Source: Escherichia coli (GTDB taxonomy: Bacteria > Pseudomonadota > Gammaproteobacteria > Enterobacterales > Enterobacteriaceae). From it: a stretch of DNA of 64,000 nt. The stretch lies in NCBI RefSeq assembly GCF_003334255.1, contig NZ_QOWU01000012.1. One strand, 5' to 3'. The stretch's first letter is position 1. Every line of letters starts with the position of its first letter. The notes under the pieces were generated by a model. It was not told where the DNA came from. It saw nothing but the letters and a program-made list of their open reading frames with translations, and did no database searches. A program made the position numbers and the translations under genes. This document shows, one piece after another, positions 4,338 to 5,073 of the stretch.

Positions 4338-5073
4338 CGGTTGTTACTGAAGGGGATTATGGCCTGACGGCTCCCTGTAAATAAAGACAGGCACAGAAGA
4401 TTGTGAGTTACTCAGTGTTCCACCAAAAAGTAAGGTCGCAACTCTGTGCCTGCTTCGTAAGTGTACAGTGAGGGCCATATGGTTATAACTGAAGCATCCG
4501 ACGACGTGGTGTCTACCCAAAAAGCGACCTGTGAATATTAGGCTGGTTAAGTGCGTATTTTCATGGAAGGAGATCACCCAATAACCCCGATCTCCTTTAT
4601 GTTAATACGCATTAAGCGGGTAAAACAGGAAGATTAAGAAAGGGAGAGTTTTTCGACTCCCCAACCAGGAGAAGCAGCTTATAACTACCAGATAGTTGTT
4701 ATGTCATACATGACGGATAATGTCATAAAAAATATGTCATTGCCGTGATTATGATCGCGTTATTGGATAAAGCAGTTCAGCGGTTTCCCAGGCTTCCTGC
4801 AGCGTTTCCTGTACAAATTCGTGCACGGATTCTTTATTTACAACTCTTAAAATGGTGAGTCCATCATTGCTGGTGGTTCTGACAATCACGTCCACATGGT
4901 CATATCCGTTAGTTATGGAATGACTATAAGGGGGGATAAGCCTCTGCAAAACAAAAAAAGACTTTAACAAAATCAATCAGTTAAAAACACAGAAAAACGC
5001 TATGAAAAATCACCATAAAAGTTTGTTTTTCCTTTTATAAATAGCTGTTTATCACATTTTTTATAATCTACCA

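Follow-up and report, generated by a model that had tools for sequence, protein, structure and literature searches.

The spacer between eaaA and the ompW remnant of an Escherichia coli genome as the probable right-hand end of prophage P-EibA

The 736-bp spacer that separates a SPATE gene from a remnant of ompW in the Escherichia coli DNA analysed here (positions 4338-5073 of a stretch of 64,000 nucleotides, hereafter the window) forms, in our assessment with high confidence, the right end of P-EibA, a lambda-like prophage integrated in the 3' part of ompW, and reaches from the stop codon of the SPATE gene to the attachment site attR. The spacer is composed of several layers rather than being a single element. 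What we observe directly is the sequence identity with P-EibA, the anatomy of the region, the duplication of the attachment (att) sequence, and the integrase (int) and excisionase (xis) genes in near-identical genomes; the whole unit, including the SPATE gene, would move as a phage. It has 100% identity with GenBank entry AF151091, the P-EibA prophage of E. coli ECOR-9; the match takes in the SPATE gene and the yciE side as well (window 1-5677 against AF151091 5602-11279, 99.93% identity). The SPATE gene, which codes for an S6 peptidase autotransporter of 1335 amino acids (330-4337, plus strand) and ends immediately before the spacer, as the first-pass annotation of this DNA had it, is eaaA, because it is so annotated in that 99.93% identical entry, and it is a cargo gene at the right end of P-EibA. 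The annotation of AF151091 runs J, lom, tail-fibre genes, eibA, orf-156A, orf-60A and eaaA, followed by a stem_loop that is the only feature annotated within the spacer; the entry shows no dinI remnant, no relic of an insertion sequence (IS) and no att sequence there. We take the source paper of this entry to be Sandt & Hill 2000, Infect Immun.

The attachment site was mapped by alignment of K-12 ompW (the prophage-free attB), attL and the attR of the window. In K-12, ompW is intact, yciE comes directly after it and none of 4338-5071 is present; relative to this attB, identity with the host gene resumes at 5072, in agreement with the ompW remnant that had been noticed at the end of the spacer. 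The attL and attR sites share a perfect 28-bp core, CAGTGTGGTACATGGATATCGATACCAC (5072-5099), beyond which a diverged copy of the ompW 3' end continues as far as 5192, so that the att sequence totals 121 bp (5072-5192, plus strand). The copy at attR, the "remnant", is the native 3' end of ompW, and the gene is completed at attL by a phage-borne copy. The phage carries its own diverged ompW 3' end, and it is because of this copy that ompW stays intact at attL. Attachment sites attL and attR of 121 bp have been published for lambda-like prophages in ompW (PMC8112680). The same alignment bears on the idea that the spacer belongs to the ordinary intergenic DNA of the chromosome in the ompW-yciE region. 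From 5072 rightwards the DNA does belong to the core genome, being found in 5423 of 5426 E. coli genomes, but the K-12 arrangement refutes this explanation for the spacer itself, every part of which is found only in prophage or IS contexts, and we assign it practically no probability.

The remainder of the prophage can be seen in sister genomes. In DETEC-S792 the spacer (99.7% identical) terminates a complete lambdoid prophage of ~57 kb, which begins with intact ompW, an integrase with an arm-binding domain, excisionase, exonuclease, a RacR-type repressor, and replication and lysis genes, continues with terminase, head and tail genes, J, lom, tail fibre, a YadA-like (Eib) gene and the S6 peptidase, and ends with the spacer, the ompW 3' remnant, yciE and the trp operon. 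Strain G1/2 (NZ_CP060083.1), whose downstream 19.9 kb are 100% identical to the window, also carries a complete lambdoid prophage of ~57 kb, with the same int and xis proteins as DETEC-S792, adjoining intact ompW. The att sequence is repeated at attL beside the tyrosine integrase and the excisionase in both strains, and in these genomes, with flanks 99.7-100% identical to those of the window, int and xis adjoin attL ~57 kb upstream, beyond the window. The mobilisation mechanism, which the first-pass annotation had described as not visible, can thus be named: the spacer ends in the attR of an ompW prophage, whose int and xis stand beside attL in the sister genomes. Recombination between attL and attR would be carried out by the tyrosine integrase, which has an arm-binding domain, and the excisionase, and would make use of the P arm contained in the spacer; to judge from these genomes, the prophage copy of the window may still be able to excise. 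In the G1/2 assembly many prophage genes are frameshifted, eaaA among them, possibly through sequencing errors.

The AT-rich P arm forms the phage side of attR (4907-5071, plus strand) and was recognised from a match survey, an alignment with CE10 and STEC17-190, a shared 11-mer and a match to the consensus of integration host factor (IHF). It has matches in 160 of 5426 complete E. coli genomes; among the matches listed, all 29 that cover most of the arm are situated at the 3' remnant of ompW or where it would be expected, and there is one short partial match without annotation. Conservation across three prophage lineages (window, CE10 and STEC17-190 in alignment) extends over the block 4942-5071, which opens with the 11-mer CTCTGCAAAAC at 4942-4952, its sole exact copy in the window. 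At attL the same 11-mer recurs in the P' arm as tandem copies between the stop codon of the phage-borne ompW and that of int, which makes it a candidate integrase arm-type site on the lambda pattern. The number of tandem copies varies, with three in DETEC-S792 (positions 10409-10445 of locus L007) and two in G1/2 (11590-11615 of locus L025), while the integrase protein is identical. An IHF consensus, AATCAATCAGTTA, is present at 4971-4983 and is kept in CE10. Integrase would be expected to bind at the arm motif and IHF at the predicted site, the AT-rich P arm of attP presumably supplying both for recombination. A hairpin overlaps the int stop codon at attL, and one may speculate about sib-like retroregulation by a terminator across att. 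The low GC content that had been reported for the spacer (25-30%, in 60-nt lines counted by hand) is a property of this arm alone: by 60-nt lines, 27% is reached only in 4938-5057, the other lines lie at 33-50%, and the spacer as a whole has 40.2%, against 51.1% for the window.

The P arm is not tied to eaaA. It is common to the ompW prophage of CE10, which is SPATE-negative, and since the eaaA-specific flank at the other end of the spacer occurs in only ~51 genomes, against 160 for the P arm, some 100 carriers of the P arm must lack an eaaA-type flank. The occurrence of the spacer as ordinary intergenic DNA at this locus in many SPATE-negative genomes, which the first-pass annotation had named as evidence that would speak against its own reading, is therefore borne out in one respect, as the right ~165-230 bp (dinI remnant and P arm) do stand beside the ompW remnant in those ~100 genomes; this is prophage DNA, however, and K-12 is without the spacer. 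In the cargo position CE10 has genes of the YkgJ and VapA/VapB families (5620-7168 of locus L015). A secondary attB derived from ykgJ-ecpE has been described in ompW prophages (PMC8112680).

Next to the P arm lies the pseudogene remnant of a dinI-like gene (4749-4916, minus strand), corresponding to residues 31-77 of an 82-residue protein. The 75-codon, TTG-initiated open reading frame on the minus strand (4749-4976) does exist, as reported, but it is not devoid of similarity: it matches Pfam PF06183 (E 2.8e-4, over model positions 15-59 of 63) as well as PHROG_189 (E 9e-8), and in a BLASTP comparison it is 74% identical over 47 amino acids to the intact 82-residue DinI-like protein of the sister prophage P-EibC. 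Comparison by alignment with P-EibC and UPEC129, in which the gene is intact, shows that the N-terminal ~30 codons, the start codon, the Shine-Dalgarno sequence and the promoter region have been lost, with the P arm now occupying the place of the N-terminal codons and the upstream region. A 2-bp deletion near the 3' end of the remnant causes a frameshift, and the LexA boxes that precede the intact dinI-like genes are absent upstream of it. Deprived of start codon, promoter and LexA boxes, and frameshifted, the gene is dead. A sigma-70 scan returned a single weak site, on the minus strand at 4950-4923, and fewer sites than in shuffled sequences. In several lambdoid phage genomes a dinI-like gene comes last at the right end, and in this phage group it is normally the last before attP; the junction between dinI remnant and P arm is the same in CE10; the truncation is therefore old and part of the ompW att module.

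Downstream of the remnant, on the same strand, a module of 3' untranslated region (3'UTR; 4663-4762, minus strand), delimited by comparative alignment, extends from the ancestral dinI stop codon (4760-4762) to a terminator. The latter, recognised by a terminator scan and by comparison, is an intrinsic hairpin, GGGGAG...CUCUCC, with a U-rich tail (4643-4662, minus strand), which ends the dinI-like transcript; its stem is kept in P-EibC, UPEC129 and CE10 with one compensatory pair, and is followed by a U-run. The module is found in 175 genomes at 73-98% conservation and follows different genes, dinI-like in P-EibA, P-EibC and UPEC129, and ykgJ-like in CE10. It contains the three copies of ATGTCAT that had drawn attention to the spacer, confirmed at 4701-4707, 4720-4726 and 4734-4740, together with an inverted CATGAC that is present as described, but at 4709-4714 rather than 4708-4713.

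These repeats could be taken for a functional regulatory array, with operators for a dimeric DNA-binding protein, or as part of a structured small RNA derived from the 3'UTR or of an RNase-processing site on a transcript in the dinI/int direction. Shuffling shows their clustering to be non-random: any 7-mer present three times within 41 nt turned up in 1 of 2000 dinucleotide-shuffled spacers and in 10 of 200 shuffles made from the entire window. The heptamers are all mini-palindromes of the form ATG-N-CAT, two of which pair in the fold predicted for the minus strand, and the ~100-bp module is conserved downstream of different genes up to its conserved terminator. Comparison with the relatives, however, tells against such a function. 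The exact heptamers are specific to P-EibA and degenerate to ATGYYAT-like forms elsewhere (ATGTCAT, AAGTCAT and ATGTTAT in P-EibC; ATGCCTT, ATGTCAT and AGGTCAT in UPEC129; ACGCCCT, ATGTTAT and ATGCCAT in CE10), and across these three relatives 13 of 21 heptamer columns are invariant as against 75 of 118 in the whole module, which amounts to no extra constraint. The palindrome GTCAT-AC-ATGAC is lost in all three. RNAalifold found no conserved base pairs on the heptamers, an Rfam search of 4200-5300 gave no match at E ≤ 1, the sigma-70 scan placed no promoter-like site at the cluster, and inspection by eye for Fur, DnaA and CRP-type sites in the heptamers yielded nothing convincing; in the window copy, moreover, the upstream gene is dead and promoterless. 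Because the heptamers are no better conserved than their surroundings and have no conserved pairs, no Rfam match and no promoter-like site, we do not regard the triplet as a regulatory array and consider that explanation very improbable. Most likely, degenerate ATG-N-CAT mini-palindromes of a non-coding 3'UTR have been sharpened in this lineage, and the resulting triplet has no function of its own. Of the two origins that had been suggested, a regulatory site thus finds no support, the repeats not being preferentially conserved within the module, and the remnant of a degraded element describes the spacer, with its dinI pseudogene and two IS relics, but not the ATGTCAT repeats, which belong to none of these. 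A plus-strand open reading frame of 15 codons, from 4701 to a TGA at 4746-4748, was rejected, as CE10 has no ATG and an early stop there and a Shine-Dalgarno sequence is missing. The first and third ATGTCAT are in frame with each other within it, and both P-EibC and UPEC129 preserve its frame and stop, a 6-nt indel being in frame.

The left half of the spacer carries the IS relics. The absence of any integrase, transposase or IS terminal repeat, reported from the first inspection, is true of intact genes but not of IS ends. One relic is the left end of an IS66-family element (4457-4531, plus strand), made up of the left inverted repeat (IRL) GTAAGTGTACAGTGAGGGCCAT, which begins GTAAG, and ~50 bp of adjoining sequence. 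It is ~79% identical to the sequence just upstream of tnpA in an intact IS66-family element (tnpA-tnpB-tnpC) of a Klebsiella plasmid, to whose IRL and adjoining sequence 4457-4524 can be aligned and for which the 22-bp IRL and right inverted repeat (IRR; GTAAGCGTACAGCG...) were verified; copies in O157 genomes match as well. Neither tnpA-tnpB-tnpC reading frames nor the IRR of the IS66 element are found in the spacer: the body of the element (tnpA/tnpB/tnpC) was later deleted, and only a relic is left.

The second is a 60-bp non-autonomous mini-element (4552-4611; 4547-4616, plus strand, with its flanking repeats), in which an ISEc12-like (IS21-family) IRL of 34 nt is fused to an IRR of 25 nt, with 32 of 34 and 22 of 25 positions, respectively, matching the ends of ISEc12. 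A 5-bp direct repeat, TTAAG, lies on either side (4547-4551 and 4612-4616), and the mini-element folds as a strong hairpin (z = -5.5), which is the stem_loop of AF151091. P-EibC has an uninterrupted empty site, CTGGTTAAGCGGG, although the same arrangement could have arisen there through deletion between direct repeats; P-EibC also carries a 98.3% identical mini-element, inverted, directly after the eaaC stop codon. The internal junction is identical in the mini-elements of P-EibA and P-EibC, and their position and orientation are different.

Matches to this mini-element family occur in 3252 of 5426 E. coli genomes, and near-full-length minis of 60-72 bp in ~1000. We inspected five copies (window 4552-4611; AF151674, locus L005, 7326-7385; and loci L019, 2503-2564, L020, 2501-2568, and L011, 3002-3071), of which two have clean 5-bp duplications, TTAAG and CCAGG, and the others do not. 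ISEc12-type left ends also account for a short "widespread motif" that occurs on IncF plasmids and downstream of Ag43 genes. A scan of viral contigs returned two loci, one in another eaaA-type prophage and one the same in sequence and flanks as an examined chromosomal copy. At 60 bp the mini-element has no istA or istB genes; a full-length ISEc12 lies 220 bp from it in a strain with identical flanks. From these sequence comparisons it may tentatively be proposed, at odds that we rate as clearly below even, that the mini-element is a still-mobile miniature inverted-repeat transposable element (MITE) derived from ISEc12 and mobilised in trans by full-length copies. It might also serve as a portable terminator of transcription, given its strong hairpin and its location immediately behind autotransporter genes.

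Further insertions have occurred in sister strains. In strain EC2 (NZ_CP058571.1, locus L003) an IS3-family element with the ends TGTAGTGG...CCACTACA sits in the IS66 relic, with the duplication AAG (4522-4524), and in G1/2 (locus L024) a full-length ISEc12 has entered the dinI remnant, with the 5-bp duplication CGGAT (4826-4830). At least four independent IS events have thus taken place in this stretch of ~740 bp, which is a recurrent IS landing zone. In the ompW prophage of STEC17-190, the interval from the tail-fibre gene to attR contains a DinI-like fragment as well as an intact IS66-family element (2646-5730 of locus L016), and an IS66 insertion near the dinI end has therefore occurred more than once.

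So many IS traces raise the question whether the spacer is instead the leftover of a non-phage mobile element, such as an IS-bounded composite transposon or island, that brought eib-eaa into the prophage, with IS transposition as the mobilisation mechanism. The IS66-family left end begins 119 bp past the eaaA stop codon and points away from eaaA, and P-EibC retains only the inner tail of the same relic, so that the relic must be older than the divergence of the two eaa loci; the ISEc12 mini-element beside it and the fresh IS3-family and ISEc12 insertions in sister strains point the same way. A composite structure, however, has not been shown, no search having been made for a partner IS66 end beyond eib-eaa. 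In AF151091 the cassette occupies the usual cargo position, between the tail-fibre genes and the spacer, where related ompW prophages hold other cargo, for example the VapA/VapB-family and YkgJ-family genes of CE10, and effector loci have been described in ompW prophages (PMC8112680). It is the prophage that today possesses intact recombination machinery, and the IS relics, which are truncated or non-autonomous, cannot move eaaA now. We therefore consider an origin of the spacer from such an element unlikely, if less so than a regulatory array, and retain the prophage-end interpretation.

Between the eaaA stop codon and the IS66 relic lies the eaaA-specific 3' flank (4339-4456, plus strand), which contains a long hairpin at 4384-4455. 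The inverted repeat that had been placed around 4392-4450 is confirmed as GGCACAGA/TCTGTGCC at 4390 and 4443 and extends to 10 nt (4388-4397 and 4443-4452); the hairpin built on it has a fold z of -2.3. The relatives of the flank revealed by the genome survey are near-identical and hence give no comparative signal. The flank may be the terminator region of eaaA or another relic. A LexA-box-like sequence of the form CTGT-N8-ACAG, CTGTAAATAAAGACAG, at 4375-4390 is the sole match in the 64-kb window, where 0.57 were expected. Located 38 bp past the eaaA stop codon, it adjoins the hairpin at 4384-4455, and apart from eaaA in antisense it has no gene downstream on either strand. The 77-codon, GTG-initiated minus-strand frame 4344-4577 exists as well, and the earlier finding of no similarity holds for it, as it has no PHROG hit; it spans the IS66 relic and the mini-element and was rejected as an artefact, though it is kept in a related contig.

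Some observations weigh against the spacer being simply the end of P-EibA. The attL site, int and xis lie outside the window, and the state of the window's own copy is read from sister genomes. The flank 4339-4456 has no homologue outside the eaaA-type loci of ~51 genomes. The IHF consensus has five matches in the window where 2.6 are expected, which makes it weak evidence when taken alone, and the ATGTCAT cluster is non-random while its origin is explained only by inference.

The anatomy is that of the attP and attR sites of phage lambda, in which a core is accompanied by a P arm with arm-type integrase, IHF and excisionase sites. Here, too, an AT-rich arm of ~130-165 bp with a match to the IHF consensus lies on the tail-gene side of the core; a candidate arm-type motif is repeated, with one copy in the P arm and two to three in tandem in the P' arm beside int; and the integrase, with an annotated arm DNA-binding domain, has an adjoining excisionase gene in the sister genomes. 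The sequences, in contrast, are unrelated, the core is situated within a gene of which the phage replaces the 3' end, and the protein-binding sites are putative. The DinI-like genes (PF06183, PHROG_189) of BP-4795 and JLK-2012 are homologous to the remnant and occupy the same position, last before att on the minus strand, but the copy in the window is a pseudogene without the first ~30 codons and the SOS-regulated promoter. As to ISEc12 and IS66 elements, the terminal inverted repeats match and the 5-bp duplication is as for the full-length ISEc12 in G1/2, whereas the spacer has no transposase genes, only one single end and one 60-bp fusion of IRL and IRR comparable to a MITE. A further parallel is provided by the PPompW prophages of Shiga toxin-producing and enteropathogenic E. 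coli (Nakamura et al. 2021, PMC8112680), which share the integration site and the 121-bp att sequence (5072-5192), and likewise have a cargo region between the tail genes and attR; the P arm of the window is 78-86% identical to that of other ompW prophages. The PPompW prophages differ in their cargo, type III effectors in place of eibA-eaaA, and in a 21-bp attB-in-PP_1 site, a candidate that was sought here and is absent from the window.

The travel of eaaA is thus explained as that of cargo of an ompW-targeting lambda-like phage, the spacer being the attR arm together with accumulated scars. The spacer itself is already known: its sequence is in GenBank, its integration site is in the literature, and it leaves the textbook anatomy of a prophage end conceptually unchanged. 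Details of the annotation and the ISEc12-derived mini-element, possibly a MITE, may be mildly new. The annotation of a much-copied GenBank region can now be completed with the dinI pseudogene, the IS66 relic, the ISEc12 mini-element and the att core and arm. Recurrent IS landing can break assemblies or typing of eaaA/eib loci by polymerase chain reaction. To the right of 5072 the window is core E. coli chromosome, from yciE to topA and beyond, and Rfam matches at gathering level elsewhere in the window are the Trp operon leader (13500-13593, minus strand) and the enterobacterial small RNA STnc180 (26031-26233, plus strand).

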